From the IMG/VR virus record IMGVR_UViG_3300030450_001823, positions 1-64,000 of that record: a DNA stretch of 64,000 nucleotides. One strand, 5' to 3'. The stretch comes from a virus. A model generated the notes under the pieces. It was not told where the DNA came from. It made no database searches and saw only the letters and a program-made list of their open reading frames with translations. The position numbers and the translations under genes are program-made. The first letter of the stretch is position 1, and the number at the start of each line of letters is the position of its first letter. This document shows, piece by piece, positions 5,131-36,545 of this stretch.

Positions 5131-5634
5131 TTGGTAGAAATATGCAGACGAGCATTCCCTTTGACTCCTTCACCTTGGTTAGCAGAGATGTCTAACCATA
5201 CAGTAGCAGTAAGCAAGATGATGGATGTAGACAGTGCGAAGGCACACTGGCAAATCGTAGAACACAATGGTACTAAGTGGATAGAAGCAAGGAGCCATGA
5301 CAGTAGAGGCGAGGTAACAAAAGCCCATCGTGCCTTAGTTGGTATGGCTACTGCTGTAAGTGAGTACCCTATACTTGATGAGCACGAGTACCTCAGTGAT
5401 GAGTACCGTCTATCAATCGAAGCGATAGCGACTATAGCCAAGCGAACAGGCACTATCATAGATTCATACCATGACTTATTCGTAGAACTCTTTGACACTC
5501 AGATTGAGATAATAGAGGATGAGCCGATGAAATACATTGTGATGATGAGTGATGATGAGTTTGTTGATTTTGTAAAATCGCTGGACTCAGAAGTTCCGGC
5601 TATAAATAAACAAGAGAATATGGAGGTTGATTAA
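5131..5634 (+). CDS. Hypothetical protein; C-terminus overlaps promoter copy 3
   Basis: 167-aa ORF, YPILDE motif. Confidence 0.55.
   Translation: MVEICRRAFPLTPSPWLAEMSNHTVAVSKMMDVDSAKAHWQIVEHNGTKWIEARSHDSRGEVTKAHRALVGMATAVSEYPILDEHEYLSDEYRLSIEAIATIAKRTGTIIDSYHDLFVELFDTQIEIIEDEPMKYIVMMSDDEFVDFVKSLDSEVPAINKQENMEVD
5584..5616 (+). promoter_or_regulatory. Conserved early promoter motif, copy 3
   Basis: GACTCAGAAGTTCCGGCTATAAATAAACAAGAG. Confidence 0.75.
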
Positions 5635-5636
5635 AA

Positions 5637-5927
5637 ATGAGAATGACAAATGAGAACAAAGGATGGATGAGGAGTGCCCTTCAATTAGGCGAAGATAACA
5701 TGATATTGTTCAGTGAGAAATGCTGGCATTGGATTTCCGACTCTTGGATAAACACACCACTACACGAGCAGTGTAACTTCTATCAGAAGTATGTTGAGTT
5801 TGGAGGCGAAGATAACTTGGCATACGATAATGAAGAAGCACTAGAGAAAACGATTGAGTACGCCCATGATAAGATAATGGATTGCTTTAGTGAAATAGAC
5901 AGAAGACTCAACTTAACGGAGGAATAA
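5637..5927 (+). CDS. Acidic hypothetical protein
   Basis: 96-aa ORF with GGAGGT RBS after promoter. Confidence 0.65.
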   Translation: MRMTNENKGWMRSALQLGEDNMILFSEKCWHWISDSWINTPLHEQCNFYQKYVEFGGEDNLAYDNEEALEKTIEYAHDKIMDCFSEIDRRLNLTEE

Positions 5928-6262: not shown

Positions 6263-6526
6263 ATGCTGTTTGAATGCGGGTTCTGCGGAGAGCAAGGTAT
6301 GCAATTAAACGAAGGTAAAATGCTCACACCTTGGCATCCTACACAACGAGATGTCGACATCATTGACATGAAATGTATTCTATGCGGAGTGCATGAGCCT
6401 TGCGAATCTGATGACCTCGCTGGATTTATGATGGAGATTTTAGGCGAGAAAAACTATGGCAAGGCTATGGTAAAGGCACTCAAGATACTATGGAAAAACG
6501 AACACATGAAGGAGATGATTGAATGA
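6263..6526 (+). CDS. Zn-ribbon protein
   Basis: CGFC...CILC. Confidence 0.6.
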   Translation: MLFECGFCGEQGMQLNEGKMLTPWHPTQRDVDIIDMKCILCGVHEPCESDDLAGFMMEILGEKNYGKAMVKALKILWKNEHMKEMIE

Positions 6527-6807
6527 TTGACACAGATAAATACGAAGGACATACAGAAGGCGAATGGAGATGGTACGAAGGAGCGAGACATAAATCGCTC
6601 ACTGGTAGTATGAGGTTACTGATGTTCGCAGAGGATGGAAACAACGAGCATCCAAAGCCAGCAGACGCAGCACTCATAGAAGATGCACCAAAACTTCTAG
6701 CCGAAGTCAAGCGGTTGCGTAAAGGTATCATCGACATTGCTGACAAATGGGAGCGACCATCTATTTTACGGGGCTTTCTCAAGGAGTTAAAGGAGTTGAT
6801 TGAATGA
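6523..6807 (+). CDS. MIDTDKYEGH-family protein 1
   Basis: MIDTDKYEGHTEGEW...DAPKLLAEVKRLR. Confidence 0.85.
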   Translation: MIDTDKYEGHTEGEWRWYEGARHKSLTGSMRLLMFAEDGNNEHPKPADAALIEDAPKLLAEVKRLRKGIIDIADKWERPSILRGFLKELKELIE

Positions 6808-7109
6808 TTGACACAGACAAATACGAAGGACACAACCTTGCTAAAGGTAGGGTCGGTAGTAACTACAACATATACGATAGAAAAGGTAACATCATCTTTG
6901 ATGCCGATAATGTGGGTAGTAACATGGCTACACTAAACTTGTTAGCAGACGCACCACTTCTCCTTGAGTTTATTCAAAAGATAGTCAAGGATTGGTGCAA
7001 GCCTAACCAATGCAACCAAGCATTCGGTAAAGATGTAAGGCAACTAATGTATGAGTATGGGCTTATAACATTCAATGAAGAAACAAGAAGATATGAGGTG
7101 AAAGAATGA
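6804..7109 (+). CDS. MIDTDKYEGH-family protein 2
   Basis: MIDTDKYEGH...LLADAPLLLE. Confidence 0.85.
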   Translation: MIDTDKYEGHNLAKGRVGSNYNIYDRKGNIIFDADNVGSNMATLNLLADAPLLLEFIQKIVKDWCKPNQCNQAFGKDVRQLMYEYGLITFNEETRRYEVKE

Positions 7110-7450
7110 TTAACACAGACAAATACGAAGGACACACACCTGCGCCGTGGACTATAGCCGAGGACATGCAAAGTGTAATGATACCAGCGAACCATCAAAG
7201 CGTGGATGATATGAGTCCTTACATTGGTAGTGGTGCAAACGCACAACTCATAGCAGACACACCACTTCTCCTTGAAGCATACAAGCGGTTGCGTGAGGAT
7301 AACAAGAAATTACACGATGCAATCAACGGCTGTGCCTACGCCAACATGCAGGGTTCAGCACATGACTTGTATTGCGAGAGCATCGTTGAGCGATGCCCTA
7401 CTTGCTATCAAAACATAGACGACATGGAATGTGGATGTGAGGAAGAATGA
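7106..7450 (+). CDS. MIDTDKYEGH-family protein 3 (Cys-rich tail)
   Basis: MINTDKYEGHTPAPW...LIADTPLLLEAYKRLRE...CPTC. Confidence 0.85.
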   Translation: MINTDKYEGHTPAPWTIAEDMQSVMIPANHQSVDDMSPYIGSGANAQLIADTPLLLEAYKRLREDNKKLHDAINGCAYANMQGSAHDLYCESIVERCPTCYQNIDDMECGCEEE

Positions 7451-7893
7451 TTGACACAGACAAATACGAAGGACACAGCACAGGATGGAAGCACAAGATA
7501 AACCACAGCACATACGGTATCATCAATGATGATGGGCATAAGGTTGCGAGTATAGGTGCTTGTGAAGATTGGCAAAAAGATAAGAGTCACATAGACTCAC
7601 AACTCATAGCAGACGCACCACTTCTCCTTCAAGCACTGATAGATGAGCGAGCAGAAGTCAAGCGGTTGCGTGAAGGTATCGAGCAGTTGGAAGAGCAAAC
7701 TTGGCAAGCCAATGAAGAAGTCGAGCGGTTGCGTGAAGCACTCATCACTGTTCAACGCTCACTTATTTGGTCTGTAGATGCTAGGTCTATGGATGGCGAC
7801 CCTATCACACTTGAAGCACTTGTCGCTCAAGTTGAGCAAGTGCAAAGCGACATAACTTATGTTTGGCTTAGAGGTGAAACCTATGAGTTTTGA
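7447..7893 (+). CDS. MIDTDKYEGH-family protein 4 (duplicated EVKRLRE)
   Basis: Constant blocks present; EVKRLRE and EVERLRE in tandem. Confidence 0.85.
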   Translation: MIDTDKYEGHSTGWKHKINHSTYGIINDDGHKVASIGACEDWQKDKSHIDSQLIADAPLLLQALIDERAEVKRLREGIEQLEEQTWQANEEVERLREALITVQRSLIWSVDARSMDGDPITLEALVAQVEQVQSDITYVWLRGETYEF

Positions 7894-8113
7894 CACAGAC
7901 AAAGAAGTAAAAAACATACTGTTTGATTTAGGCGTAGAAGGAAATGAATATGGAGACTTAGTTGAATACATATCTAACTTACTCGCAGAAGTCAAGCGGT
8001 TGCGTGAAAAGAATGACGAACTCTTGGAATACTTTTACACATACGAAGGGCTGGAGGCTTGGTTAGATGAAAACCACTACCAAGTCCTTACTGATTGGAG
8101 AGATGAACAATGA
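7883..8113 (+). CDS. MIDTDKYEGH-family protein 5 (degenerate)
   Basis: MSFDTDK...LLAEVKRLRE; ATG 7883 after GAGGTGA. Confidence 0.75.
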   Translation: MSFDTDKEVKNILFDLGVEGNEYGDLVEYISNLLAEVKRLREKNDELLEYFYTYEGLEAWLDENHYQVLTDWRDEQ

Positions 8114-8442
8114 TTGACATAGACAAATACGAAGGACATACAGAAGGGCCTTGGAAACATGTGTATCAGCCTTGGGGTGGAATTGATTACATTATGAGTC
8201 CACATGAGGACTGCGTTGCTAAAATAGACAATGGCGACAAGAGTTCTGCGGAGAACAGAGCCGATGCACTACTTGTAGCAGACGCACCACTTCTTCTTGA
8301 AGAAGTCAAGCGGTTGCGACCAATGGCTGATGAATTGATTGCGATATGGGAGATACTTGAAGAAGATTACCCCCAAGTTGATAGGGCTATTGTAAAGGAA
8401 TTGATTGAAAGAAAAATAGGAGATTATGAGGTGATTGAATGA
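8110..8442 (+). CDS. MIDTDKYEGH-family protein 6
   Basis: MIDIDKYEGHTEGPW...ADAPLLLEEVKRLR. Confidence 0.85.
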   Translation: MIDIDKYEGHTEGPWKHVYQPWGGIDYIMSPHEDCVAKIDNGDKSSAENRADALLVADAPLLLEEVKRLRPMADELIAIWEILEEDYPQVDRAIVKELIERKIGDYEVIE

Positions 8443-8699
8443 TTGACACAGACAAATACGAAGGACACACACCCGGTCAGTGGTCGGTGACATCAATCCG
8501 TGACGGAAGCATACCTTGGAACACGGCTGACGAGGAACTGTGTGCAGACGCACCACTTCTCCTTGCAGAAGTCAAGCGGTTGTATGAATGGATTGAACGA
8601 GCAGGTTCTATGGTCGCACAAAGCGGTTATTTGCTCAATGCACTTACAGAAAAGCATGAAGCCACCAAGATATTCTTAGAAGAGGTGTTTGAAGAATGA
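8439..8699 (+). CDS. MIDTDKYEGH-family protein 7
   Basis: MIDTDKYEGHTPGQW...ADAPLLLAEVKRL. Confidence 0.85.
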   Translation: MIDTDKYEGHTPGQWSVTSIRDGSIPWNTADEELCADAPLLLAEVKRLYEWIERAGSMVAQSGYLLNALTEKHEATKIFLEEVFEE

Positions 8700-9145
8700 T
8701 TGACACAGACAAATACGAAGGACATACACCTGTGCCTTGGAATGTATCGAGAGGGCAAAGGAACACAGTTCTGATTGAATCAGAAACATTAGGTTGTAGT
8801 GATTGCGAGAGTGCAGACATATACACATACGCAAACACAGGTGGTAAGGAGATACAATTTCCTAATTCCGTTGAACCTGCTCCCTTTACTTTACAAGAAG
8901 AAAAGGATTGGCGAATGGGCTATCAAATGTATTGCCCTTCATGTGACTTGTTAGATTGGGCAACGCCTATTGATGCTACGCAGAACGACACTGACCTTGA
9001 ACTCATAGCAGACGCACCACTTATCCTTGAAGAAGTCAAGCGATTGCGTGAAGCGATTGCTGATATTGCTACCAACATGGAGGCGGCAGACCCGTCATAT
9101 TTGCAGGGATTCATTAAGGATTTACTAGAGGTGATTGAAAGATGA
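8696..9145 (+). CDS. MIDTDKYEGH-family protein 8 (Zn-ribbon insert)
   Basis: Variable region holds CSDC...CPSC. Confidence 0.85.
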   Translation: MIDTDKYEGHTPVPWNVSRGQRNTVLIESETLGCSDCESADIYTYANTGGKEIQFPNSVEPAPFTLQEEKDWRMGYQMYCPSCDLLDWATPIDATQNDTDLELIADAPLILEEVKRLREAIADIATNMEAADPSYLQGFIKDLLEVIER

Positions 9146-9621
9146 TGTACGCTGTGTGCCATGACTGTGGAGTACAGTTTAGAAAGTTTTCAACTAAAGC
9201 GACCGATAGCGTCTGTTACGATTGTAGAAATAGAGGCAAAGGCTCTAGGAGTAACATTTACAATCAGATGGAGAGGGCGCTAGAAAAAGATAAGGAAAGT
9301 GTAATCAACCGTATGGATTTTATAGAAGAGCGTATGGATTCGATAGAAGACTTGTTAAAAGTATTACACGAAGCAATAGGCGCAACTGTAATACCGATTG
9401 TAGAAGAACAGATGGAGAAGGTTGCCAAGGAGACATTTGAGACACTGGCGCATACGATTTCTGAACAGTCAGCAGGTGCTTACTCAAGGTCTAGGTCGGC
9501 TGTTAATTCAGTAGAAGAACTGAGTACGGTTATTAAGAATCTTAAATCACAGGTCACTCGATTTAGAAACCACATAAATAAATCAGTCATACCGATGAAT
9601 AGGAGTTTGGGTAAAAAATGA
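9142..9621 (+). CDS. Zn-finger plus coiled-coil protein
   Basis: CHDC...CYDC followed by heptad-like helical region. Confidence 0.65.
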   Translation: MMYAVCHDCGVQFRKFSTKATDSVCYDCRNRGKGSRSNIYNQMERALEKDKESVINRMDFIEERMDSIEDLLKVLHEAIGATVIPIVEEQMEKVAKETFETLAHTISEQSAGAYSRSRSAVNSVEELSTVIKNLKSQVTRFRNHINKSVIPMNRSLGKK

Positions 9622-9653
9622 ACCGAAGAGTTCCGGTTATAAATAAACAAGAG
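9621..9653 (+). promoter_or_regulatory. Conserved early promoter motif, copy 4
   Basis: AACCGAAGAGTTCCGGTTATAAATAAACAAGAG. Confidence 0.75.
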
Positions 9654-9681
9654 AATGTAGAAAACAGTTAGAGTTGATAAG

Positions 9682-10002
9682 ATGAGATGGATTAACACAA
9701 GAGAAGAGATGAAAGAATTACAAAAAGAATTGGGTGTAAGACATGATTGGCACGAACCCGATGAGTCGGGAGTAGAAATTATATTTGTAGGTAGAGAGTT
9801 CGACAATGCTATGCCGACATTTGCTGTATCTACTTACGAGAATGGTAGTCCGAAAGAAGTAGTTGAGCCGACCCACCCGAATTACCTCGACCATGTATGT
9901 GAAAACTCAATAGTGTTTCTCAAACATTCTAAACCGATAGCCGCTATCAATGTAGCAATATGGTGTTGGATAACTTGTCAAGGCGTGGAGGTGACGGCGT
10001 GA
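9682..10002 (+). CDS. Hypothetical protein ending GVEVTA
   Basis: 106-aa ORF terminating in junction repeat. Confidence 0.65.
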   Translation: MRWINTREEMKELQKELGVRHDWHEPDESGVEIIFVGREFDNAMPTFAVSTYENGSPKEVVEPTHPNYLDHVCENSIVFLKHSKPIAAINVAIWCWITCQGVEVTA

Positions 10003-10175
10003 AGTGCATACCTAAGAAGAACAGCCGAGCGCATTCTAATACAAGCCAAGTTGATTGGTTGCTGGACATTGACTGTGCTATTTGCAAAAGTCGAACATCA
10101 ATGTGCAGAGTCAAGGTGACAATGGATGAGATGGAAGATTGGATTGCTGAACGAGGCGTGGAGGTGAAGGCGTGA
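9999..10175 (+). CDS. Mini-gene (CxxC) ending GVEVKA
   Basis: GTG start inside junction repeat. Confidence 0.6.
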   Translation: MKCIPKKNSRAHSNTSQVDWLLDIDCAICKSRTSMCRVKVTMDEMEDWIAERGVEVKA

Positions 10176-10321
10176 ATATCGGTTTTAATTGGGCTATGCA
10201 CAGGGCGTATTACATTGACCTACTCAAGAAGGGTTGGCCTCTCAAGGCGGCTTACGACGAAGCGGTTAGATATACTAACGAACAAGAAGCGTTGAGCGTT
10301 ACAAGGGAGGTGACGGCATAA
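10172..10321 (+). CDS. 49-aa mini-gene ending REVTA (not in ORF track)
   Basis: MNIGFNWAMHRAYYIDLLKKGWPLKAAYDEAVRYTNEQEALSVTREVTA*, hand-translated between two repeats. Confidence 0.6.
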   Translation: MNIGFNWAMHRAYYIDLLKKGWPLKAAYDEAVRYTNEQEALSVTREVTA

Positions 10322-10587
10322 TGGGTGCATGGATAGATGAAAAGGCTCGCTTTTGGCATTGGTGTGAAGAGTGTGCTGCCCCGTCATGGTTTCATATGTT
10401 CACCAACAAATACGATGAATACGCCTATTACTTCTGTAATACACAAATTGATGATGAGAGAGTCTGTAACAATGAAAAATACACAATGGAGAATGATGAA
10501 TACTCAGAGGGCAACCATGAGAATGCAGTGCCGTTAGAGATTGAAGGGATTTACGATGATGAAGAAGGCGTGGAGGTGACGGCATGA
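10321..10587 (+). CDS. Acidic Cys-containing mini-protein ending GVEVTA
   Basis: CEEC...C...C; TAATG coupling. Confidence 0.65.
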   Translation: MGAWIDEKARFWHWCEECAAPSWFHMFTNKYDEYAYYFCNTQIDDERVCNNEKYTMENDEYSEGNHENAVPLEIEGIYDDEEGVEVTA

Positions 10588-10799
10588 GTGAACAGAGAAC
10601 ATACGATAGAACATGGGTCGAGATAGAGGACATGCTTGACCGAGCAGAGCGCAAGCAGAACATACACTACACCAAAATGCAGAGGGGCAAGAAGGCCGAG
10701 CGCGTCTTTCATATGAGAAATTACAAGGCACTTGAAGGTGTAGTCAAGACACTGAAATGGGCGCTGGGCGAAAAAGGAATTGAACACCCTTTGGAATAA
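10584..10799 (+). CDS. Small helical hypothetical protein
   Basis: 71 aa, starts in junction repeat. Confidence 0.65.
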   Translation: MSEQRTYDRTWVEIEDMLDRAERKQNIHYTKMQRGKKAERVFHMRNYKALEGVVKTLKWALGEKGIEHPLE

Positions 10800-10805
10800 A
10801 GAGTG

Positions 10806-10838
10806 GACTGAAAGGTTCCGTTTATAAATAAACAAGAG
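10806..10838 (+). promoter_or_regulatory. Conserved early promoter motif, copy 5
   Basis: GACTGAAAGGTTCCGTTTATAAATAAACAAGAG then GAGAGTGATTGAAAATG. Confidence 0.8.
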
Positions 10839-10858
10839 AAGATAGAGAGTGATTGAAA

Positions 10859-11299
10859 ATGAGCATACTATACTTAGATAAGATGCCCGACCAAGCGGCA
10901 AAGAAGTACCCTACGCACATGCTTGACTCAGCCATACAGTCGGTACTATCATCATTCGATGAGGGCGACTGTCTCTATGACTGGGTGCATGAAAGTAGAG
11001 GTAACTATGCTTGGATGGCTATACATGCACAGTCACTACTAGACACATGGCACAATGTCAACGGGTCACATCATCCACTAAAGGATAGTATCGAGACTAT
11101 CTATTACAGTATAATTCCAGCGAGCATACCTAGCGGTATGTTCTCAGCCGTTCCTTTGGATTTACCATACGAATATCGTGCGGTGGAGTTCAGTAACGGA
11201 GAGGTGCATGCCTTGGAGTATGTACCAATAGATGATGCAGTAGAGTTATCGACACTGTACATAAATGATATGAAAGAAGTGAAGGAGATGAAAATATGA
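10859..11299 (+). CDS. Degenerate pyrimidine-dimer DNA glycosylase-like protein
   Basis: MSILYLDKMPDQAAK and WVHESRGNYAWMAIHAQSL...GSHH resemble the MNIFxLD.P..AA / W.R.S..NY.WL..H family; central DKHVVKM and HPC motifs absent. Confidence 0.5.
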   Translation: MSILYLDKMPDQAAKKYPTHMLDSAIQSVLSSFDEGDCLYDWVHESRGNYAWMAIHAQSLLDTWHNVNGSHHPLKDSIETIYYSIIPASIPSGMFSAVPLDLPYEYRAVEFSNGEVHALEYVPIDDAVELSTLYINDMKEVKEMKI

Positions 11300-11460
11300 A
11301 ATACGATTTGGAATACTATCTAGCATTTAGGGATGCGACGCAACGCCATGTAAACGATTTACAACAAATGTTTAACCTTGCGAATAGCCAGTTACACATG
11401 GCTAAATTACAACTTAAAGGAATTGAGGACAGAATAATTAAATTGGAGATGAAACTATGA
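11296..11460 (+). CDS. 54-aa coiled-coil microprotein (not in track)
   Basis: Hand-translated, ATGA-coupled on both sides, GGAG RBS. Confidence 0.55.
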   Translation: MKYDLEYYLAFRDATQRHVNDLQQMFNLANSQLHMAKLQLKGIEDRIIKLEMKL

Positions 11461-11867
11461 ATATGAAAGATTATGAAAAGCAAGCAGAAGAATTGACAAA
11501 ACAAGCACAGAGATTAGAAGCGACCATGCTGACATACAGAATACTACAAGACTGCGTGAAGAATGGATTTGACTTTGAATACTGGCTTGAAGAGGAGACT
11601 AAGACCATTCGTGGTATGTGTGGGAAGAGTGGTATATACTTCAAGGCAGAGAACTACACCATGTGGTTCGATGAGAAAAACGAAGAGGGCTTTGGTGACC
11701 TTGCAGGTCTGAACATTGAGGACATAGACTTGGAAGAACCCGAACCCCCTTCACAAAAAATAAGCGAAACGGATGAGAAACCTAAAGTTCCATTGGAAAA
11801 TGAAGTAGATTCCAGCGGGGCATATCGAGTAGATGTGTCCGGTATTATTGGAAAGAAGGAGGAATGA
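11457..11867 (+). CDS. Hypothetical protein
   Basis: 136-aa ORF. Confidence 0.65.
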   Translation: MNMKDYEKQAEELTKQAQRLEATMLTYRILQDCVKNGFDFEYWLEEETKTIRGMCGKSGIYFKAENYTMWFDEKNEEGFGDLAGLNIEDIDLEEPEPPSQKISETDEKPKVPLENEVDSSGAYRVDVSGIIGKKEE

Positions 11868-12036
11868 ATATGAAAATAACAAAAGCAGAACTAAGATGGA
11901 GCCAACTGATGACCAATCTTGAAGAGGTTGTTCACGCAGCACACGATATGAAAAGAGCAGGTGAGATGACAGAGGAACAGTATCAACACTTCAACAACAC
12001 AGTAGGTAATTTAGAAATGAGAGCGAGGGATTTGAA

Positions 12037-12459
12037 ATGAATTATAATATGATAGCATTAAAGACAGACAAAGAAGGAAACCAGCACACCGAATACTATG
12101 TCGAGGTTGCTGAGAAGAACAGTCGTACATACGCAGTGCGTGGAGTCAACTCAATGGCCGAAGCAATTGCTTGGGTCGAAGAGAACGGCTACGACGCTTG
12201 GGACCAAGACGGTGTCCGTTGTGAAGAGATGGATGGGTGGTGGAAACATCACCAAGCGTACAAACCTAAACCAGCAGGTGTCAAGAAGTATTCAGCGTGT
12301 GCATTCAAAGGCAGGGTACTCACTAAGCCTAGGAACGAAATTGGTTTTAAGCAGCGACATTATTGTGACAACTACCTAGAAGGTCACGAGGGAGGAGTAT
12401 GCCCTAAGTGCGAAGAAGTGCTTGAGAACGGTTACTCACTAAGCCCAAAGGAGGAATAA
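12037..12459 (+). CDS. Hypothetical protein with C-terminal Cys cluster
   Basis: 140 aa, CPKC. Confidence 0.65.
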   Translation: MNYNMIALKTDKEGNQHTEYYVEVAEKNSRTYAVRGVNSMAEAIAWVEENGYDAWDQDGVRCEEMDGWWKHHQAYKPKPAGVKKYSACAFKGRVLTKPRNEIGFKQRHYCDNYLEGHEGGVCPKCEEVLENGYSLSPKEE

Positions 12460-12777
12460 ATATGGCAATGGATAATTACTTACTAAAGGCAGCCCTGAAA
12501 GATAAAGTCAGAGAGGCTTGGATAGACCTATGTATCTCTAACGATATAGATTTCACTAAGCATCATATCTACATGAACGACTACGGTACTAGGTTTGATG
12601 TACAAATGCCTGAGATTATACCCGATGAGGAGGAATGAGTATGGGTAAGATGGGCCAACTACATACGATGCTTAGTGAAGGTGCTGGTGTTACTACTGTA
12701 GCAGACCAGTTACAAGAATGGAACCGTTCTATAGATAGGCGCACTGCAATTGATAACGCCTATTACTTTATGAAACA

Positions 12778-13104
12778 ATGGAGGGAAACAGCGTGACACA
12801 CGAAGAGGATAAAGAAGATGAATTAGACAGACAAAATGCTCTAAAATTACCCTTTGTGTGTAGTTCGGTCTGTCCTAACTGTTACGATGAAGACTTGGAA
12901 GAATATGACCAAGAGGGGATGGCGAGGTTTGGTATGAGCGATACGAACCCCTATGTGATGGTGTTTTCATGCGGTTGGTGTGATTTCTCCGCCATTGATG
13001 AATGGCAACCTCATAGGCATGGGTTACCCGATTGGTTCTTTGAAAATACAGTAAGAAAAAAGAGAGGTAGTGATATTTATCGTTGGCGGGAGGTGACAGT
13101 ATGA
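12778..13104 (+). CDS. Zn-ribbon protein ending REVTV
   Basis: CPNC...CGWC. Confidence 0.6.
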   Translation: MEGNSVTHEEDKEDELDRQNALKLPFVCSSVCPNCYDEDLEEYDQEGMARFGMSDTNPYVMVFSCGWCDFSAIDEWQPHRHGLPDWFFENTVRKKRGSDIYRWREVTV

Positions 13105-13262
13105 AGTGTTGTAAAGAAATAGACGACGATTGGATAGACGGTGATATGTGGCATGATAACCATACTACATTTGGGTGTAGTCATGGAAAACTCTTGGTGA
13201 CTTACCAATGCCCTCACTGTGGTAAAAGAATTGAAAGAGACTTTGTGGAGGTGACGGCATGA
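13101..13262 (+). CDS. 53-aa Zn-finger mini-gene ending VEVTA (not in track)
   Basis: MKCCKEIDD...QCPHCGKRIERDFVEVTA*. Confidence 0.65.
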   Translation: MKCCKEIDDDWIDGDMWHDNHTTFGCSHGKLLVTYQCPHCGKRIERDFVEVTA

Positions 13263-13453
13263 TTACTTGCTATGGAATTGCATACGGTAAAGATGACTTT
13301 TTGCATGTTGATGTTTCTAAGACTGAAAGAGGGGCGAAGATATATGCAACTCGTAACGGCTACACCAAGGTCACAATTAGGGTAGGTTATCACGCTGAAA
13401 TAATTGCCGAGAAGGTAGATGGTAAGTGGCAAGGCGTGGAGGTGACGGCGTGA
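13259..13453 (+). CDS. 64-aa mini-gene ending GVEVTA
   Basis: Bounded by junction repeats. Confidence 0.65.
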   Translation: MITCYGIAYGKDDFLHVDVSKTERGAKIYATRNGYTKVTIRVGYHAEIIAEKVDGKWQGVEVTA

Positions 13454-13563
13454 CACTTGAAATAACAGGGTGCGAAAATTGTAAGCGGTTTTGGTTGAAG
13501 GGTGAGGATTTTTGTCACGATTGCGGGCATGAGTTTGAAGAAAGCGTGGAGGTGACGGCATGA
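13450..13563 (+). CDS. 37-aa Zn-ribbon mini-gene (not in track)
   Basis: MTLEITGCENCKRFWLKGEDFCHDCGHEFEESVEVTA*. Confidence 0.6.
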   Translation: MTLEITGCENCKRFWLKGEDFCHDCGHEFEESVEVTA

Positions 13564-13679
13564 TTTACGAATACTCAAGTGGTATATACTATGACTCGTC
13601 AATCAACATTTTCTTTTTCCTAAACGAACAGGGTGAAGAAGTTGAATGCGACGAACAAGGCGTGGAGGTGACGGCATGA
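13560..13679 (+). CDS. 39-aa mini-gene (not in track)
   Basis: MIYEYSSGIYYDSSINIFFFLNEQGEEVECDEQGVEVTA*. Confidence 0.55.
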   Translation: MIYEYSSGIYYDSSINIFFFLNEQGEEVECDEQGVEVTA

Positions 13680-13975
13680 GTGAAGAATTAGAAAGATTCA
13701 AAGAACAGGTTAAGAAGTTGAAAGAGGAAATTGAATACTTGAAAAGGCAACATGATTGGGAGCATGAAGTCTTAATGTATATAGACGAAGGTGAAGATTT
13801 CTCATATGATAATTTCCTGTATTATAGGAGTAATGCAGGTTGGTGTAATGAATGTGATTCCGTGTCAGTAAACGAACAGCATTTACAAGGGGGTAGAACC
13901 CTTGAAAACCCTAATGCTGATGGTGAATATGAATGCTATTATTGTTGGGAAAAAAATGAGGATGAGAAAGTATGA
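13676..13975 (+). CDS. Coiled-coil plus Zn-finger protein
   Basis: MSEELERFK...; CNEC...CYYC. Confidence 0.65.
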   Translation: MSEELERFKEQVKKLKEEIEYLKRQHDWEHEVLMYIDEGEDFSYDNFLYYRSNAGWCNECDSVSVNEQHLQGGRTLENPNADGEYECYYCWEKNEDEKV

Positions 13976-15975
13976 AGCGAATTAGCATAGAGTTGTACAA
14001 TGATGACTACGGCGAGAGGCTCGGCCTCAAGTACAGTTATGACCCTGACACCAATGAACTGCTCAAGTCGACACTGGGTTTCCCTAAGTTCAAGTGGGAT
14101 GCGGATAGAAAATTGTGGAGCATAGAGAACAAGAAGTATGTCATTAACGAGGCATGTCAGGTACTTGAAGAGTTGAACTACGATACAGAGTATATTCACA
14201 AACACAACGGGACCCTCCCCGAAAACCAGCAAAACAAATCAGAGTGTTGGACTGAGGTTAAGCGTACTAGGTTACACTTGCACTGGCCCTACATTGTAGA
14301 CAGCGAACTGCGTGAAACTGTGCGCCTTGCTGTGCGTAGCATAGGCGGTCGTAAGTTTCATGCTGACAAGAAGTGCTGGTCGATACCTGTCGCACAAGCG
14401 CGCACATTACATTCACTTATTGAGGACTCCTACCCACCTTTGGCAAAGGCTATCCTCAGTAACGATGACATCAACACTGATGTCGCAGATAGTATAGAGC
14501 GAGTGGAGATGAGTTCCGCTGCCGAATTAACCGATGAGCGAGTAGAGTCAATATCCTATAGACTGGATGACTGCTTGCCCGAAGACATGGAACTGTACCC
14601 TTTCCAAAAGGTAGCGGTTGCGTTTGCAGAAGCAAGTAATGGTATGTGTTTGATTGGTGATGAGATGGGAATTGGCAAGACAATATCCACCATAGGTTAC
14701 GCTGCGATTAACCCAAAGGACAGGCCGATGCTTGTAGTCAGCCCTGCAAATGTCAAGTTCAACTGGAAAAAAGAAGTAAGTAAGTGGTTACCTACTGAGA
14801 GTGTGACGGTTATTACCAAGGGTAAGGAAACGATAGAAACGGCTGACATTATCATAATCAATTATGACTTGATGGTGAAGAAGCAAGACGAACTAATTGC
14901 ACTAGGTCCTAAGTTGGTTGTACTTGATGAAGTACATTACCTAAAAAACAGTAGAGCAAAACGAACACAGGCGACTCTGTTAGTAGCACAGGATTCACCC
15001 AAGGTGATTGCACTTAGTGGCACTGCTATTAGCAGCCGCCCCTCTGAGTTCTTCAACACTCTGAACTTGATGCGCCCTGAGCAATTCCCTAACTTTTGGA
15101 ACTTCGCACAGCGTTACTGCGACCCTTGGAACAATGGCTTCGGCTGGGATTTCACAGGTGCAAGTCACACTAAGGAACTCAATGAAAGGATTCGTGACTT
15201 ATGTATTCGTAGACTCAAGAGCGAAGTACTACCTGACCTACCACCTAAGACTCGTACCTTCTTACCTATACATTTGTCTAAGTCTGAAAGGGAGCCTTAT
15301 GACATAGCGCAAGAGGAGTGGGACAGAAGAATAGACGACCACTACCTAAACGGAGAGTCGCTACCAAAGGGTATGATGCTGAACATGCTCAATGACCTGA
15401 GACATATATGCGGGAGAATCAAAGTCAAGTATGCCATTGACTGGATAGGGCAGTATCGTGACCAAACAAAAATGCCGCTGGTTGTATTCACTCATCATCG
15501 TGATGTCATGGTAATGATAGGCGAGCAACTGAAAGCACTAGAGCAGTATGGAAATACCAAGCGAATAAATTACATCAATGGTGACACTTCTTCTAAGAGG
15601 AGACAAGAGTTGGTTGATGATTTCCAAGCGGGCCACATAGATGTACTCATCTGCAATACAATTGCAGCCAAGGAGGGCATCACACTTACAGCGGCAGACA
15701 CAGTTCTATTCATCGAGCGCGAATGGGTCCCAACTGATGAAGAACAGGCAGAGGACAGAGTCTATAGAATAGGACAGGAGAGCCAACATGTACACGCTGT
15801 GTACATATCATGCGCCGGTACAATAGACGAACACTTTGACCGTGTGGTTGAACAGAAAAGACAAGTGGTTAAGTCTGTACTAGACGGTGGAGATGTCGAG
15901 GAACGCAAGGGCCTTGTTAAGGAACTGGTTAGAAAACTTAAGCAAGAGCGTGCTTGGAAATACGAGGTGGAATGA
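13972..15975 (+). CDS. SNF2-family ATPase, SMARCAL1/HARP-like annealing helicase
   Basis: LYPFQ, DEMGIGKT, LDEVH, LSGT, EGITLTAA, QAEDRVYRIGQ; two N-terminal HARP-like repeats (FKWDADRKLWSI; RKFHADKKCWSIP). Confidence 0.9.
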   Translation: MKRISIELYNDDYGERLGLKYSYDPDTNELLKSTLGFPKFKWDADRKLWSIENKKYVINEACQVLEELNYDTEYIHKHNGTLPENQQNKSECWTEVKRTRLHLHWPYIVDSELRETVRLAVRSIGGRKFHADKKCWSIPVAQARTLHSLIEDSYPPLAKAILSNDDINTDVADSIERVEMSSAAELTDERVESISYRLDDCLPEDMELYPFQKVAVAFAEASNGMCLIGDEMGIGKTISTIGYAAINPKDRPMLVVSPANVKFNWKKEVSKWLPTESVTVITKGKETIETADIIIINYDLMVKKQDELIALGPKLVVLDEVHYLKNSRAKRTQATLLVAQDSPKVIALSGTAISSRPSEFFNTLNLMRPEQFPNFWNFAQRYCDPWNNGFGWDFTGASHTKELNERIRDLCIRRLKSEVLPDLPPKTRTFLPIHLSKSEREPYDIAQEEWDRRIDDHYLNGESLPKGMMLNMLNDLRHICGRIKVKYAIDWIGQYRDQTKMPLVVFTHHRDVMVMIGEQLKALEQYGNTKRINYINGDTSSKRRQELVDDFQAGHIDVLICNTIAAKEGITLTAADTVLFIEREWVPTDEEQAEDRVYRIGQESQHVHAVYISCAGTIDEHFDRVVEQKRQVVKSVLDGGDVEERKGLVKELVRKLKQERAWKYEVE

Positions 15976-17329: not shown

Positions 17330-17375
17330 GTTAACCCCATCCCTTTCTGTCATTTAGTGATTGCTTGAAAAAGGC

Positions 17376-17408
17376 CACTGAGAAGTTCCGGTTATAAATA
17401 AACAAGAA
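17376..17408 (+). promoter_or_regulatory. Conserved early promoter motif, copy 6
   Basis: CACTGAGAAGTTCCGGTTATAAATAAACAAGAA. Confidence 0.8.
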
Positions 17409-17446
17409 AAGATAGTAAATACCTTTTTAGGAAACCAGCAAAACGG

Positions 17447-21585: not shown

Positions 21586-23046
21586 ATGTTACTAGCAGAA
21601 GCGGCTGACATCTCTGAAAATCTCAGGCGGCTGTATCGCAAGATGCTGACCGACCGTGAGAATCGCTCGATGTATTTTTCACAGGCACTCACTGTTATTC
21701 AACAGGCTACAAGGGATGTAGGAGATGAGATGGAGTCGCTGATAGATATTTTCTATCCTAAGTATTCCCGATACCAAAGGCAGTTCACTACTATACATTG
21801 GGTCAGAGGAGACCTATGTAAAAAATTATCAATATCCCCATTGGTGTGGGATGAGTCACTGGCAGGTAAGCCTATCATTCCTCTACTATCGTTAGAGTCA
21901 CCTGAGTATGGGGGTGAAGGGATGACAGTCAAACAAGCCCTTACTCTCATGCCTCGCATACAAGACCTAGGGTTCCTAGCGGTTGCCAACAAAATGAATG
22001 AGAAAGAGGCGTTGTTATTTTGGTCAAGGGCACTTGATGAAAGTCCGATGATGCCTGTTGATAGATTCCTCCAAATGGTATCTTACCTAGGAGACGGACA
22101 CTCTCAGAGTCTAACGGCCATCAGAAGGATGCTTGAGACTATGAGTCCAGCAGAAGTGCTAAACAAACTATTCGCAGAGGAAAAGGTAGACCTCGATATA
22201 AGGACCATGCAACCCGGAATCGCTTTCAAGGGTCCTATCTATAGAGCGTGGAATAAACTGGTGACGCCTACAGAAGTATACGCCGAGGTTGTATCAAAGC
22301 CAAGGAGATACCTGCACATAACTGAGTTTCCAATCGGAGTGTTTAAGGGTGTCTTGTACAATAGAGACCGTCAGGTTGTGGGAAAGTTGTCAGAGTCAGT
22401 ATTACCTTACAAGCAAGAGGCTATCTTTGAAGTAGAGGCAGACATAACTAATGTCAAATGTATAACCGATGTCTTGTCAATAGGTGATGATTGGAATATA
22501 CATAAGTTAGATTATGTCGACCGTATTTCCTACCTAAATAGATTAGAATTAAAGTGCCCTGTTAAAACTGGCAAGCCCTTGTCAGCCTCTACAGATTTGA
22601 GCCATTTGCTTGAGTCCCTTGGAGAGCAAGAGCGATTGAGATTAACCAACAAGGGTGCGTTTAAGATAGGAGGAGAAGGCGGCTGGCTGATACTCAAAGA
22701 CGCATTCCATATCCATTTACTAGTGAGTGCTATTAGAAAGGATGAGGAGTTCAATACGCATGTAAGGCTCGCTGCTATGGATGGCTACGAGATGTATGAA
22801 GTAGGTGAGATGGAGATACCTGTAGGGCCAGCGCAGCAGATGAGGCAGCGGCTCGCTAGAGACGGAGTACTGGCAGGTACTGGCTGGCTACCTGTAGACG
22901 AATACGCTATGGTGGTGCTGTTAGAAATAAGCGCCTTTGACTTAGATTCACTTACGCTCAAGCAAGGTAAATTAGAATACCTAGATGAGAGCATGGGCTA
23001 CAGTGATGTTTCCCAATTGACTGATTTGATAGAAACGATAGACTGA
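21586..23046 (+). CDS. Highly divergent ATP-dependent DNA ligase-like protein, KxDG motif not evident
   Basis: Ligase-like order of elements (helical N-domain; AEVVSKPRRYLH; LYNR; IFEVE; ITDVL...DRISYL; WLILK; OB-like C-terminus). Confidence 0.5.
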   Translation: MLLAEAADISENLRRLYRKMLTDRENRSMYFSQALTVIQQATRDVGDEMESLIDIFYPKYSRYQRQFTTIHWVRGDLCKKLSISPLVWDESLAGKPIIPLLSLESPEYGGEGMTVKQALTLMPRIQDLGFLAVANKMNEKEALLFWSRALDESPMMPVDRFLQMVSYLGDGHSQSLTAIRRMLETMSPAEVLNKLFAEEKVDLDIRTMQPGIAFKGPIYRAWNKLVTPTEVYAEVVSKPRRYLHITEFPIGVFKGVLYNRDRQVVGKLSESVLPYKQEAIFEVEADITNVKCITDVLSIGDDWNIHKLDYVDRISYLNRLELKCPVKTGKPLSASTDLSHLLESLGEQERLRLTNKGAFKIGGEGGWLILKDAFHIHLLVSAIRKDEEFNTHVRLAAMDGYEMYEVGEMEIPVGPAQQMRQRLARDGVLAGTGWLPVDEYAMVVLLEISAFDLDSLTLKQGKLEYLDESMGYSDVSQLTDLIETID

Positions 23047-23073
23047 GAAGTTCCGGTTATAAATAAACAAGAA
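23041..23073 (+). promoter_or_regulatory. Conserved early promoter motif, copy 7
   Basis: GACTGAGAAGTTCCGGTTATAAATAAACAAGAA, heads replication operon. Confidence 0.8.
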
Positions 23074-23084
23074 AGGATAGTGAA

Positions 23085-24017
23085 GTGATGAATTGGAGAG
23101 AGAAGTACCGACCTACTACCCTGAGTGAGTTAGTAGGCCATAGTGACTTTGTAGCATCTGCTACTAACTGGGCACTAGAGTCCTGTCCTCCTAACCTACT
23201 GATTGTGGGTCCACCGGGTGTCGGTAAAAGCAGTGCGGTATATGCATTAGCAAAGGATATACTGGGAGAGTTCTTCGACCCAATGAACTTCATCGTAACC
23301 AATGCAAGTGACGATAGAGGCATTGATTACATTAGGCAACTCAAGCGGATAAGTAAGAAGAAAGGACTTGGCGTTAGTCGCATAATTATATTTTTAGACG
23401 AGGCAGACAACCTCACATCAGCAGCACAGAAGGCTCTTCGCCAAATCATGGAAGAGAGTCACGAGTCTGCTATATTCATACTTACAGCAAATGACATCAG
23501 CCCTATACACGCTGCGATTAGGGATAGGTGCTTGACATACGAGTTCAAGCCTATACACCATGCCGACACAGGTAGACTGGGTACTATCATCAATGCGGAG
23601 GGCAGACCCGCAGAATGGAACAATCATCTATCTATGCTTTTACAGAACTGTAACGGTAGTCTTAGAAAAGCAATTGATGTAATCGAGAGTATACGCAATG
23701 AACCGGATGCACTTGTAAATTACCTCAAGCGAGACACTAACTCACTTAACAAAGCGGCCCTAAATCTAATGGGTTCTGATTTCCCGCAGGTTACCGCCCT
23801 GCTCGTCAATTCGATGGAAAGCGGTTACAGTCGTCTAGGTGTGCTCAAGGGCCTTAGACAGCGTGCCAAGCCTCTCATGGAGAGTGAGAGTGACTGGCAC
23901 ACATTCATGCTCACATATGGCGAGTTCGTCATGCTGGCTACACAGTGGCCGGATGATGACTTGGCGTTTGTTGAGTATTTTGTAGCAAAACTAAAGAGAA
24001 ATATGGAGGAGAAATAG
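23085..24017 (+). CDS. rfcS: Replication factor C small subunit (clamp loader)
   Basis: WREKYRP, GPPGVGKS, NASDDRGID, LDEAD, AQKALR, DRC. Confidence 0.93.
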   Translation: MMNWREKYRPTTLSELVGHSDFVASATNWALESCPPNLLIVGPPGVGKSSAVYALAKDILGEFFDPMNFIVTNASDDRGIDYIRQLKRISKKKGLGVSRIIIFLDEADNLTSAAQKALRQIMEESHESAIFILTANDISPIHAAIRDRCLTYEFKPIHHADTGRLGTIINAEGRPAEWNNHLSMLLQNCNGSLRKAIDVIESIRNEPDALVNYLKRDTNSLNKAALNLMGSDFPQVTALLVNSMESGYSRLGVLKGLRQRAKPLMESESDWHTFMLTYGEFVMLATQWPDDDLAFVEYFVAKLKRNMEEK

Positions 24018-24019
24018 AT

Positions 24020-25312
24020 ATGACAGAAGATAAAAAATGGCCTGACGCTTCGATAGAGCGCTTACAGGCATATGCAGATAGAACAGGAGTAAAGGTAGGA
24101 GAGGCCGTCAATGAGTTCAAGAAGTGGCTCAAGGCGGAGTTTTCTGTAGACAATCCGTTGGATGAAGACGAATACCTATTGGTAGAATGGACTGAAATGT
24201 TCGTAATTGAAACACGAAACTTAGGTGGTAGCGGCGGCAGTAGCCGAGCGACTTCTACTTATGTGGGTCACCTTGTAGGTATAGAAGACACCTCTCGTGA
24301 CATGAGAAAGAGTGCTAGAGAAAATGCACTTAATATGTTCCGTGCTAATAGCGACAGAGCGATTAGTGAGAAATTAATCGGTATAGTTACCGCTAAAGAA
24401 GGCGTATGGCACATCAATGGAGAGGCAACTACAGAGCGAGTCGATGGTAGCAACTTACCTTGGTTCGCTCTTGAAGAAGGGGATACGATTTTATGTCTAC
24501 TCAACACCAATGCTGCGAGTGCAAGTGTAGGTAAGCCTATGGCACCTACTAGTTTCACACGCACTTTGTACTTACTAGGCTCCGAGGAAAAGAGCAACAA
24601 GATTGGCCTTTGGAGAGTTACACTCAATGGTAAGTCAATGGATGCTGAATACAATTACCACGAACCGTGTAAGGTACAAGTCATACCACCTAAAGACATC
24701 ACTAGGGACACGCTGTACACTAACAGGGATTTCCATACAACCATTGAATACACGGATTCATTCGTACCTGACAACCTTCGTCAAGAATTACAGGCACAAA
24801 GATTCTTACTCAACGAGAACATGCACGACGCATCAGTTGACTTGAGCGAACTAGCAGAAGCACACGCTGACCGTAAGATTAAGTTACCTAGCGGGGTTAC
24901 ACTAAACCCTACTATCATTGTGAAAGGGAATGTCAGTCGTTTGAATAAACAAGCGATGGATAGCGAGTATGATGCGACAGGTCGCTCTTACCGTATGAAT
25001 ATCACCAGCCTATCTCTACAATCTCGTAACGGTAGAGACAGCGCTCAATCAGAAGTGACCGTATGGATTCCGGGTCGACTACATGACGAACACCACCCGT
25101 TTGAATACGAACTAGATGGGATAAAGGATAACTGGACTGCTTATGCAGAGAAAACACCGGTGATTGTATTCGGTCGACTTAAGATGCGCCCATACCAAGA
25201 TGATATGTTACCAAGTATCACTGCACTGGGTATCTATGTACCGCCACGCACCGCTCGCCCAGCAGGTGGTAGCGGCAGTACAGACCTCAACCAATTCGGA
25301 GGTGATGAGTGA
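24020..25312 (+). CDS. Probable replication protein, possibly OB-fold RPA-like SSB
   Basis: 430 aa, beta-rich C-half, flexible acidic tail, position between RFC and recombination ATPase; function from context only. Confidence 0.4.
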   Translation: MTEDKKWPDASIERLQAYADRTGVKVGEAVNEFKKWLKAEFSVDNPLDEDEYLLVEWTEMFVIETRNLGGSGGSSRATSTYVGHLVGIEDTSRDMRKSARENALNMFRANSDRAISEKLIGIVTAKEGVWHINGEATTERVDGSNLPWFALEEGDTILCLLNTNAASASVGKPMAPTSFTRTLYLLGSEEKSNKIGLWRVTLNGKSMDAEYNYHEPCKVQVIPPKDITRDTLYTNRDFHTTIEYTDSFVPDNLRQELQAQRFLLNENMHDASVDLSELAEAHADRKIKLPSGVTLNPTIIVKGNVSRLNKQAMDSEYDATGRSYRMNITSLSLQSRNGRDSAQSEVTVWIPGRLHDEHHPFEYELDGIKDNWTAYAEKTPVIVFGRLKMRPYQDDMLPSITALGIYVPPRTARPAGGSGSTDLNQFGGDE

Positions 25313-27667: not shown

Positions 27668-28035
27668 TAATCAATTTAACACCTCATGAAATAAACTTAG
27701 TTTCTCACGGCGAGAATGTAACGATACCAAAAGGAATATCAGTAGCAAGAGTGACTAATGCAAAATCGAGCGTTAAGCACATTAAGTACGATGGTCATTC
27801 AATACCAGTAGTTCAACTCACCGGCTCTAAAATCATAGTAAGAACTGGGCTTAGTGAAGAAGATTGGGATAATTTTGTTAAGTTTGAAGAAAAATTACAT
27901 GGAGATTGTCTCTTCATAGTGAGCCACATTACTAGGATGTACATGTCGACTCATACAGACAAAGTCCTCACAATCAACTCAAACTTAACCGGTCTAATAT
28001 CTCACGAAGGTGCGTACATGGAGATGAAAGAGTGA
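27664..28035 (+). CDS. Hypothetical protein (INLTPH family)
   Basis: MIINLTPHEINL...ARV. Confidence 0.6.
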   Translation: MIINLTPHEINLVSHGENVTIPKGISVARVTNAKSSVKHIKYDGHSIPVVQLTGSKIIVRTGLSEEDWDNFVKFEEKLHGDCLFIVSHITRMYMSTHTDKVLTINSNLTGLISHEGAYMEMKE

Positions 28036-35936: not shown

Positions 35937-36545
35937 ATGAATAAGATGCTGGCACTTGATATAGAGACTGCAAATTACTCTCATGAAATAGGAGGCTGGG
36001 GTCAAACTCACTTGTTTGAACCTAGCGTAGTCGCTACATGGGATGGTAACGAGGGTGTAGTTTACGCGAATGAAAATGTAGAAAAATATCTACCCGAAGG
36101 TACTATCATCAAGTCACTCCATCCTAAAACACTCGGAGAGGACCTTGCCAAGCATGTATCTGATGGAGGAATGGTACTCGGTCATAACTTGAAAATGTTT
36201 GACCTACCTATACTCCGAGACGCTTTGGATTGCTGGACTGCAAGAGACATTATGAACAAATCAGCCGAGCAAGTTTTTGACACATCTGCTTTGCTCAAAG
36301 GTATAGTCGGTCACGCTGTCCCATTGTCAGATGCCTGTTACCATACTCTTGGTAAAGGTAAACTCATGACTAGTCACGACGCCCCAATAGAGTGGAGAAA
36401 GGGTAATCACAGCAAAGTTGCTGAGTATTGCCTCAAAGATGCGGAATTAGTTTATGAACTATGGCGTCACGGCGTAGACGAGGGACTCATAAAAGCCCGG
36501 TGCAGGTCATCGGGCGAAGTCAAAGAATACGAAGTAGATTGGTGA
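35937..36545 (+). CDS. DEDD/RNase H-like 3'-5' exonuclease
   Basis: LDIET, GHN..FD, YCLKD. Confidence 0.8.

Follow-up and report, generated by a model that had tools for sequence, protein, structure and literature searches.

A ribosome-binding, stop and start repeat inside coding sequence chains unrelated mini-genes in a magrovirus-like genome and marks a hot spot for their turnover

In T4-type phages, open reading frames (ORFs) are shuffled by promoter-early stem-loop (PeSL) repeats, repeated promoter/terminator cassettes that can excise as mini-circles (Arbiol et al. 2010, PMC2839356; Comeau et al. 2014, PMC4122927), and Cluster K mycobacteriophages carry start-associated sequences (SAS) of 13 bp (GGGATAGGAGCCC) that are scattered through the genome, in many cases together with 17-bp inverted repeats (Pope et al. 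2011, PMC3203893). Boundary (linker) sequences have been proposed for homologous recombination at the joints of mosaic phage genomes, where they are usually not found (PMC3029335), and in the haloarchaeal virus HGTV-1 a TATA-box/inverted-repeat motif located before ORFs has been suggested as a driver of genome shuffling (PMC3950731). Here, we describe a junction repeat of about 20 nt that chains unrelated mini-genes in the first 64 kb of the IMG/VR record IMGVR_UViG_3300030450_001823 (hereafter the window, i.e., the whole stretch of 64,000 nt that was analysed). The record comprises 97,235 bp with a GC content of 43%, is rated 93% complete, and belongs to a virus that is magrovirus-like, judging by its gene content and thermosome matches. 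All the sequences compared are metagenome assemblies, and L-numbers (L010, L060, etc.) designate related contigs; the first set was composed of 54 sources (the window and 53 contigs), and an enlarged set was added later.

The window contains nine copies of (A)GGCGTGGAGGTGACGGCRTGA, all on the plus strand and grouped in two clusters, at the positions claimed in the original prediction, which had been made from the letters of the window. The 22-mer AGGCGTGGAGGTGACGGCRTGA matched six times with at most one mismatch, always on the plus strand (9981, 10154, 10566, 13432, 13542, and 13658); with at most three mismatches, six matches were found against 0 expected from shuffles, and GGAGGTGAYRG with at most one mismatch was found 15 times against 3.1 expected. 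Three copies (~10300, 13083, and 13241) are degenerate at the 5′ end, with Shine-Dalgarno (SD) cores at 10306, 13089, and 13247. All seven intervals between adjacent copies hold a single ORF of 37–88 aa (hereafter a cassette) that takes its RTG start from one copy and its stop, in a ..VEVTA*-like ending, from the next, as claimed and as confirmed by the ORF coordinates. The two arrays are composed of the following features:

9612..9664, plus strand: promoter-like repeat with a TATA-like TTATAAATAAAC, heading the array 1 operon; one (A1) of seven aligned copies, with L060 homology breaking at the ATGA directly 3′ of it
9682..10002, plus strand: 106-aa gene preceding array 1, ending ..CQGVEVTA* in copy 1, no Pfam match; it occupies the place of the T4 endonuclease V (endoV)-like anchor gene of L060
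9981..10002, plus strand: junction repeat copy 1, exact
9999..10175, plus strand: cassette, 58 aa, 87.5% nt identical to the L050 copy
10154..10175, plus strand: junction repeat copy 2, one mismatch, spacer AGGC
10172..10321, plus strand: cassette, 49 aa, whose L027 and L066 homologs have other neighbours
10300..10323, plus strand: junction repeat copy 3, 5′ degenerate, with a TAA stop and ATG overlapping by 1 nt
10321..10587, plus strand: cassette, 88 aa, Cys-rich, 97.9% nt identical to the L010 copy
10566..10587, plus strand: junction repeat copy 4, exact; L060 homology resumes inside it, at 10568
10584..10799, plus strand: terminal cassette of array 1, 71 aa, with no repeat at its 3′ end, 99% identical to the L018 copy
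10791..10853, plus strand: promoter-like repeat, heading the next operon, which holds array 2
12780..12796, plus strand: degenerate junction GGAGGGAAACAGCGTGA, where L060 has one extra cassette
12793..13104, plus strand: 103-aa CxxC gene preceding array 2, family f111, no Pfam match
13083..13104, plus strand: junction repeat copy 5, degenerate (GGCGGGAGGTGACAGTATGA)
13101..13262, plus strand: cassette, 53 aa, zinc-ribbon-like (below threshold), 83–86% nt identical to the L050 and L058 copies
13241..13262, plus strand: junction repeat copy 6, 5′ degenerate
13259..13453, plus strand: cassette, 64 aa, absent from L060, of a family also present in L066
13432..13453, plus strand: junction repeat copy 7, exact
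13450..13563, plus strand: cassette, 37 aa, double CxxC, 100% nt identical to the L049 copy, with backbones at ~67%
13542..13563, plus strand: junction repeat copy 8, one mismatch
13560..13679, plus strand: cassette, 39 aa, 80–94% nt identical (maximum 93.7%) to the L023, L043, L052, and L056 copies
13658..13679, plus strand: junction repeat copy 9, exact
13676..13975, plus strand: terminal cassette of array 2, 99 aa, of a recurrent family, leading into the SNF2 helicase gene

The conserved block spans about 20 nt and reads, in the frame of the upstream gene, NGC GTG GAG GTG ACG GCR TGA (..G/C/S-V-E-V-T-A-stop). It contains the 8-nt SD core (GGAGGTGA), the stop of the upstream gene, and the RTG with which the next gene begins, overlapping that stop, that is, the ribosome-binding site (RBS), stop, and start that had been attributed to it. 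At a typical junction, the upstream gene ends in ..VEVTA* and overlaps the next gene by the 4 nt of RTGA, the exception being the TAATG at 10319–10323. The conservation beyond the RBS that had been noticed on both sides was borne out at 160 distinct junctions from the window and the 53 contigs, with GCGT 5′ of the SD core conserved at 72–83% and the CGGC spacer at 89–99%, and it extends to four-fold degenerate third-codon positions. The residue preceding VEVTA varies (Gly, Cys, or Ser), yet its codon retains the bases GC; in a single cassette family, the tail switches with the type of the following junction (KEVTA, KEMKE, or ..AEVTE); 5 of 154 upstream ORFs use another frame of the block and stop at a TGA inside the SD; and terminal cassettes lack the ..VEVTA tail. 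Therefore, the conserved entity is the nucleic acid and not the peptide.

On the plus strand of the 97,235-bp genome, GGAGGTGA occurs ten times, nine of them as junction copies, and it occurs once on the minus strand. The sole other plus-strand occurrence, at 25298–25312, precedes a 335-aa core gene and has different flanks (GGAGGTGATGAGTGATG); this junction is also conserved in L034 and L073. In L015, whose flanks look GC-richer, two of the three copies (8044, 8145, and 8515) carry the spacer GCGC for CGGC, which hints at within-genome homogenisation of the copies (concerted evolution).

The exact 21-mer was found in 53 other IMG/VR contigs and, among the matches listed, in more than 118 marine metagenome contigs. 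When whole records were searched, the motif was present in 38 of 45 relatives, always on one strand and in one or two tight clusters, while a reversed control pattern occurred in none of the 45 related records. The same whole-record search found no motif in seven relatives that carry SNF2, including one that is 98% complete, and those examined had ordinary, heterogeneous SD/ATGA overlap junctions; thus, the motif is not imposed by the translation system of the host.

The cargo of the junctions is diverse. In the first set, 175 post-junction ORFs were grouped into 97 families in mosaic order, and the enlarged set provided 282 internal cassettes with a median length of 51 aa, corresponding to 102 families of which 47 are singletons. 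About 21% of the internal cassettes have two or more CxxC motifs, and the Pfam search for cargo functions gave only zinc-ribbon matches below threshold. The pooled ratio of non-synonymous to synonymous substitution rates over 17 cassette families was 0.15, a sign of purifying selection, so these mini-ORFs are real genes. The same family was found twice in only 1 of 122 arrays, which indicates that arrays do not grow by tandem duplication and agrees with the earlier statement that the cargo proteins are unrelated; a paralogous family with a common C-terminus was rejected on the same grounds.

Cassette order is close to freely permuted. Two or more different right neighbours (the maximum being eight) were seen for 28 of the 34 recurrent families. 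When copies of one cassette were compared pairwise, 53 of 72 pairs had different left neighbours and 35 of 46 had different right neighbours. Counted from the first G of the SD, mean per-base identity falls from ~0.95 to ~0.28 right at the block edges (−8 and +16). In the larger set, once duplicates had been removed, the 5′ flank is linked to the upstream family (P<0.0005), and the start base (P=0.004) and the spacer (P=0.044) are weakly linked to the downstream family, which places crossovers inside the invariant block. A stronger statement, of no linkage between the start base R and either flank, had to be softened given the weak downstream linkage in this larger set. Cargo content and order vary among relatives with breakpoints inside the repeat, as the original prediction had proposed, and a fixed content was not found.

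The anchor gene, at whose 3′ end the array begins in most relatives, encodes 168–193 aa, belongs to the Pfam family Pyr_excise (PF03013, 29.5 bits, cut-off 23), and resembles T4 endonuclease V; this anchor was seen at L060:1035-1601 and ~45 other loci. Arrays starting there often continue into the RFC gene, and the anchor-RFC site is empty in L029 and L037 and is filled by one cassette in L010, two in L028, and three in L009. The longest single array comprises 9–10 post-junction ORFs, all on one strand. Identical arrays accompany only essentially identical anchor genes (L052/L056 and three pairs at 100%); where the anchor genes were 91.5% identical, the paired arrays had no cassette in common, and the best partial overlap was 0.27 at 87.6%.

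The cassettes of the window also recur in unlike surroundings. The homolog of the 9999–10175 cassette adjoins that of 13101–13262 in L050; the 13560–13679 cassette is the first one after the anchor gene in L023, L043, L052, and L056; and the homolog of the 10321–10587 cassette in L010, preceded there by the same GGAGGTGACGGCATAATG form of copy 3, sits between the anchor gene and RFC in a contig whose alignment with the window is limited to 1,226 nt, with a mean identity of 74%. Nucleotide identities to the copies in other contigs reach 87.5% (9999), 97.9% (10321), 100% (13450), and at most 93.7% (13560), whereas the backbone genes shared by those contigs are only ~67–70% identical to the window. 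This gap suggests that cassettes have been transferred horizontally between backbones.

A near-isogenic comparison and a control with ordinary junctions show how turnover is distributed. Relative to L060/L018, the SNF2 protein of the window is 99% identical and the backbone 96% identical, but in L060 array 1 is replaced from the start codon behind the promoter-like repeat (9685) to copy 4 (10568), and four window cassettes of array 2 (13101–13679) are absent. When the left gene had at least 90% protein identity, the right neighbour was homologous at 22% of repeat junctions (20/92) and at 63% of repeat-free tight SD junctions (228/360), a ~3-fold higher synteny loss at the repeat in terms of neighbours retained. 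With left genes of 75–90% identity, the corresponding values were 2% and 42%; the same contrast was obtained for small genes alone, and all comparisons were made within the same loci. The entire early region is plastic, and within it the repeat marks a hot spot for turnover, not a requirement.

The finding is real, its statistics are solid and its biology is coherent, and a plausible mechanism can be proposed for it. We consider it probable that the block is a translational-coupling junction that doubles as a crossover site for short-homology recombination. A near-identical block lying between unrelated genes and genomes would offer a shared crossover site, and short-homology recombination or template switching inside it, between co-infecting or sister genomes, could insert, delete, replace, or reorder whole mini-genes. 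Exchange in register would keep both neighbours intact and coupled, and the coupling that we infer at the junction rests on its geometry, since an ATGA overlap with an intragenic SD gives termination-reinitiation in archaea (Huber et al. 2019, PMC6728339). The enzymes would be nucleases or helicases of the host or the virus, with the viral PD-(D/E)XK nuclease (31070), the ERCC4 nuclease (33567), and the SNF2 helicase (13972) as candidates.

Several points weigh against this explanation. In L060, gene indels also occur at the ordinary junctions 10859, 11299, and 11867, bounded by just 4–7 nt of ATGA-type microhomology, and homology breaks also fall at the promoter-like repeat, so the 20-mer is not needed for gene turnover; on this account, the term gene-capture system used in the original prediction was an overstatement. 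Selection for intact genes alone would also leave breakpoints concentrated at gene boundaries. For homologous recombination of the RecA/RadA type, a length of ~20 bp is short, and a scan of ~30 early and replicative proteins against Pfam and PHROGs revealed no annealing protein. The dependence of the exchange on homology is deduced from footprints in assemblies, most loci were recruited via the repeat itself, and the pairwise comparisons are phylogenetically non-independent. Finally, recombination would account for the spread of the block and not for the conservation of GCGT and CGGC, whose upkeep fits both homogenisation by repeated exchange and a second function at the RNA or DNA level.

A further-reaching version, which we regard as unlikely, takes the 20-mer as an evolved, self-propagating connector in which GCGT and CGGC actively promote exchange, perhaps by creating a hot spot of pausing, nicking, or annealing for the viral replication/repair machinery or the adjacent endoV-like enzyme, the outcome being integrase-free cassette capture from an ocean-wide pool of mini-genes. 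If true, the pool would be open, as the 102 families found here, 47 of them singletons, would illustrate, and would probably consist of host-takeover or anti-defence factors.

The main rival explanation holds that the block is mainly a regulatory operator whose full 20-mer is recognised to co-control the mini-genes, recombination being a by-product. The recogniser could be an RNA-binding protein, such as a T4 RegA-like repressor, a T4 RegB-like GGAG endoribonuclease, or a DNA-binding factor. Pairing with the host ribosome leaves room for such a function: two Poseidoniales 16S genes end in ..GGATCACCTCCT, which pairs with GGAGGTGA, the exact complement of UCACCUCC in that 16S, and with nothing on either side. 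Thus, of the 20 conserved bases, eight are covered by host anti-SD pairing and four by the stop and start, while the eight of GCGT and CGGC are covered by neither. The architecture is restricted to one class of small genes, in one or two arrays per genome, and differs from the other tight junctions of the viral loci in its GC-rich spacer, its GTG starts (56% versus 5%), its −4 overlaps (95% versus 54%), and its SD match (8 nt versus a mean of 5.3 nt). It is nearly missing from the hosts as well; GGAGGTGA-N4-RTGA occurs nine times in four Poseidoniales genomes (6.6 Mb), never with CGGC, and the full motif is absent from core-gene junctions; the anti-SD complementarity that the original prediction had asked about explains the 8-nt core only. 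Moreover, the mycobacteriophage SAS are start-associated sequences of unassigned function and possible binding sites (PMC3203893). On the other hand, no candidate binding protein was identified, the motif is present solely at gene-gene junctions and never at the first gene behind a promoter, the seven SNF2-anchored relatives described above do without it, and an operator alone leaves the excess synteny loss unexplained. We judge a predominantly regulatory role improbable, although it is compatible with a coupling junction that doubles as a crossover site and does not exclude it.

A less probable explanation is that the block is simply an optimal coupling signal reached by convergence, with turnover due to generic illegitimate recombination plus selection and no role of the block in exchange. 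Overlapping ATGA pairs with intragenic SDs are indeed common and give coupling (PMC6728339), the nearby non-repeat indels use microhomologies of 4–7 nt, and the plasticity of the early region is such that only 63% of neighbours are kept at other tight junctions even when the left gene is at least 90% identical. However, convergence cannot make four-fold degenerate sites and the spacer identical over ~100 unrelated families, nor preserve GC in a codon whose residue varies; the ~3-fold higher synteny loss at repeat junctions of the same loci also speaks against it, as does the fact that homology stops at the block edges and not at scattered points.

We attach very little weight to the proposal that a site-specific recombinase or nickase, as yet unrecognised, acts on the block, one candidate being the endoV-like Pyr_excise gene, placed beside its site as intI is beside attI. 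The Pyr_excise-family gene does lie directly upstream of the array in ~45 genomes and ends in the first junction copy in most relatives, and many large early proteins are without family assignment. Nevertheless, the window has two arrays and no canonical copy of this gene, its divergent 146-aa paralog at 10859–11299 having no Pfam match and no adjoining repeat, and the family is known as a pyrimidine-dimer glycosylase/apurinic-apyrimidinic lyase, not as a recombinase. In the 97-kb genome, tyrosine recombinases (PF00589) gave no match while the control genomes all matched, and serine recombinases (PF00239) and RadA/Rad51 (PF08423) gave none either; the scan of ~30 proteins likewise contained no integrase or RadA, its matches being PD-(D/E)XK, ERCC4, SNF2, RFC, PolB, and an exonuclease. 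Accordingly, the integrase-free part of the original prediction stands for these families, whereas its integron-like part holds only as an analogy, with no intI and no attC-type structure. The site has no inverted symmetry, and the weak link of the start base to one side is a poor fit to one fixed cleavage point. The consensus is predicted to fold as a weak hairpin of 3–4 bp (−3.9 to −4.8 kcal/mol, z ~ −1.4 versus shuffles) with GGAGGUG in the loop, variant 5′ flanks mostly retain the CGGC spacer as judged by eye, and compensating changes are not evident.

An assembly artefact, or a functional C-terminal peptide tag (GVEVTA), is hardly credible: all the data are metagenome assemblies and 149 of 154 upstream ORFs end ..EVTA-like, but a 20–22-nt repeat is shorter than normal reads and final assembler k-mers, so reads should span each adjacency, identical arrays occur under separate IMG/VR sample numbers (L017/L059, L021/L046, and L066/L075), and a tag is contradicted by the third-codon conservation, the junction-dependent tails, the five ORFs in another frame, and the tail-less terminal cassettes.

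Other identities of the element were considered and discarded. A structured RNA element was rejected, as the hairpin is no better than shuffles and shows no evident compensating changes; Rfam revealed no family at E≤1 in 9000–14500. Arrays of clustered regularly interspaced short palindromic repeats (CRISPR) are characterised by regular repeats of ~23–50 nt and non-coding spacers of similar length, and a CRISPR-like array was rejected because the intervals here are irregular (90–270 nt) and protein-coding under purifying selection, with no Rfam match. Iterons or a replication origin are unlikely, given that the copies are frame-locked to a stop and a start and spaced by gene lengths; Tandem Repeats Finder detected no tandem repeats beside the copies, and the repeat searches made gave no inverted repeats either. 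As for a frameshift or readthrough site, there is no slippery context, and frame c merely continues into the downstream gene.

Regarding the rest of the genome, the following features were annotated:

575-660, 2528-2613, 5560-5645, 9600-9685, 10775-10860, 17350-17435, and 23020-23105: copies of the promoter-like repeat
13972-15975, plus strand: SNF2 helicase gene
23085: RFC-like clamp loader
28032-29351 and 29348-30391: PolB split into two ORFs (exonuclease part and polymerase part) with a 4-nt overlap
31070: PD-(D/E)XK nuclease
32292: primase-large-subunit-like protein
33567: ERCC4 nuclease
35937-36545: exonuclease-like ORF, PHROG 403
36574: group II chaperonin (thermosome)

PolB, RFC, the SNF2 helicase, the thermosome, and a genome of ~100 kb match the gene set of magrovirus group A; in magroviruses, SNF2 is found in group A and the thermosome in groups A and D (Philosof et al., PMC5434244). 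The best cellular relatives of the thermosome, at 41% identity, belong to Thalassarchaeaceae/Poseidoniales, which makes Poseidoniales (Marine Group II archaea) the probable host. A thermosome 79% identical to the viral one is encoded in L077 (NZQM01000180.1), a 9.6-kb contig labelled as a Parvibaculum sp. metagenome-assembled genome, which is probably a magrovirus contig wrongly binned into a bacterial genome. The late, minus-strand half of the genome contains a single ORF of 5,723 aa (42013–59184, minus strand).

Two further kinds of repeat were observed. The promoter-like repeat of ~50 nt (..GACTGAGAAGTTCCGGTTATAAATAAACAAGAGAA..) is present in seven copies located 25–35 nt before start codons, and at least two homology breaks relative to L060 lie directly after its copies (9685 and 10866); by analogy, it may be the truer PeSL counterpart of this virus. 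In addition, tandem paralogs at 6263–9145 have a near-identical first block (MIDTDKYEGH..) and the junction GAGGTGATTGA-ATG-ATTGA, which recurs in L063, L068, and L074 and represents a second kind of junction-repeat array in the genome.

The junction repeat bears on an old question, namely whether boundary-exact gene exchange reflects conserved linkers or random illegitimate joints followed by selection, linkers having rarely been found. An explicit linker at hundreds of joints, in viruses abundant in the surface ocean, is a natural and countable test case that offers a defined site, ~100 mini-gene families, empty and filled sites, and built-in control junctions. It also illustrates a design principle, in which a connector carrying an RBS, a stop, and a start renders an inserted gene expression-ready, and the fast-turnover mini-proteins, many of them zinc-ribbon-like, are candidates for host takeover or counter-defence in magroviruses.

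When compared to known systems, PeSL shuffling is the closest in working and, as an analogy, a closer precedent than integrons. PeSLs and the junction repeat are both short expression signals that recur beside small non-essential ORFans of hyperplastic regions; in both systems, the repeats delimit the insertions, deletions, and replacements that separate close relatives, and no dedicated recombinase is involved, exchange being ascribed to inter-repeat recombination. In contrast, a PeSL lies between genes and combines a sigma70 promoter with a terminator stem-loop, while the junction repeat is an SD/stop/start of ~20 nt within coding sequence; its cassettes are predicted to stay in one coupled string, and its host is archaeal. 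In anatomy, the closest known system is SAS, likewise an asymmetric SD-containing motif located upstream of starts, in one orientation, before different families, and conserved beyond the need of ribosome binding, but with another sequence and not reported as a stop/start overlap or a shuffling breakpoint. With respect to the linker model, the difference is that one explicit 20-mer is found here at more than 200 joints.

The resemblance to integrons is one of outcome only. Same-orientation, promoterless, unrelated cassettes, a recurring site, a variable number at a fixed locus, and a pool shared between genomes are common to both. Integron attC sites are imperfect inverted repeats of ~57–141 nt that fold as single strands, whereas this virus has neither IntI nor an attC-type imperfect palindrome, and its site of ~20 nt lies in coding sequence and doubles as an RBS. 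Ordinary ATGA termination-reinitiation pairs (PMC6728339) have the same 4-nt overlap and an SD in the 3′ end of the upstream gene, but no common flanks or spacer, while here 20 nt are common to ~100 unrelated families. HGTV-1 is also an archaeal tailed virus with a repeated expression motif; in that case, the motif is a promoter element with no comparative breakpoint evidence. In the magrovirus papers PMC5434244 and PMC11706807, the term ‘Shine’ does not occur and ‘repeat’ refers only to terminal repeats and assembly. What is new in relation to all these systems is an RBS/stop/start repeat that lies inside coding sequence and chains unrelated mini-genes across a clade of uncultivated archaeal viruses.

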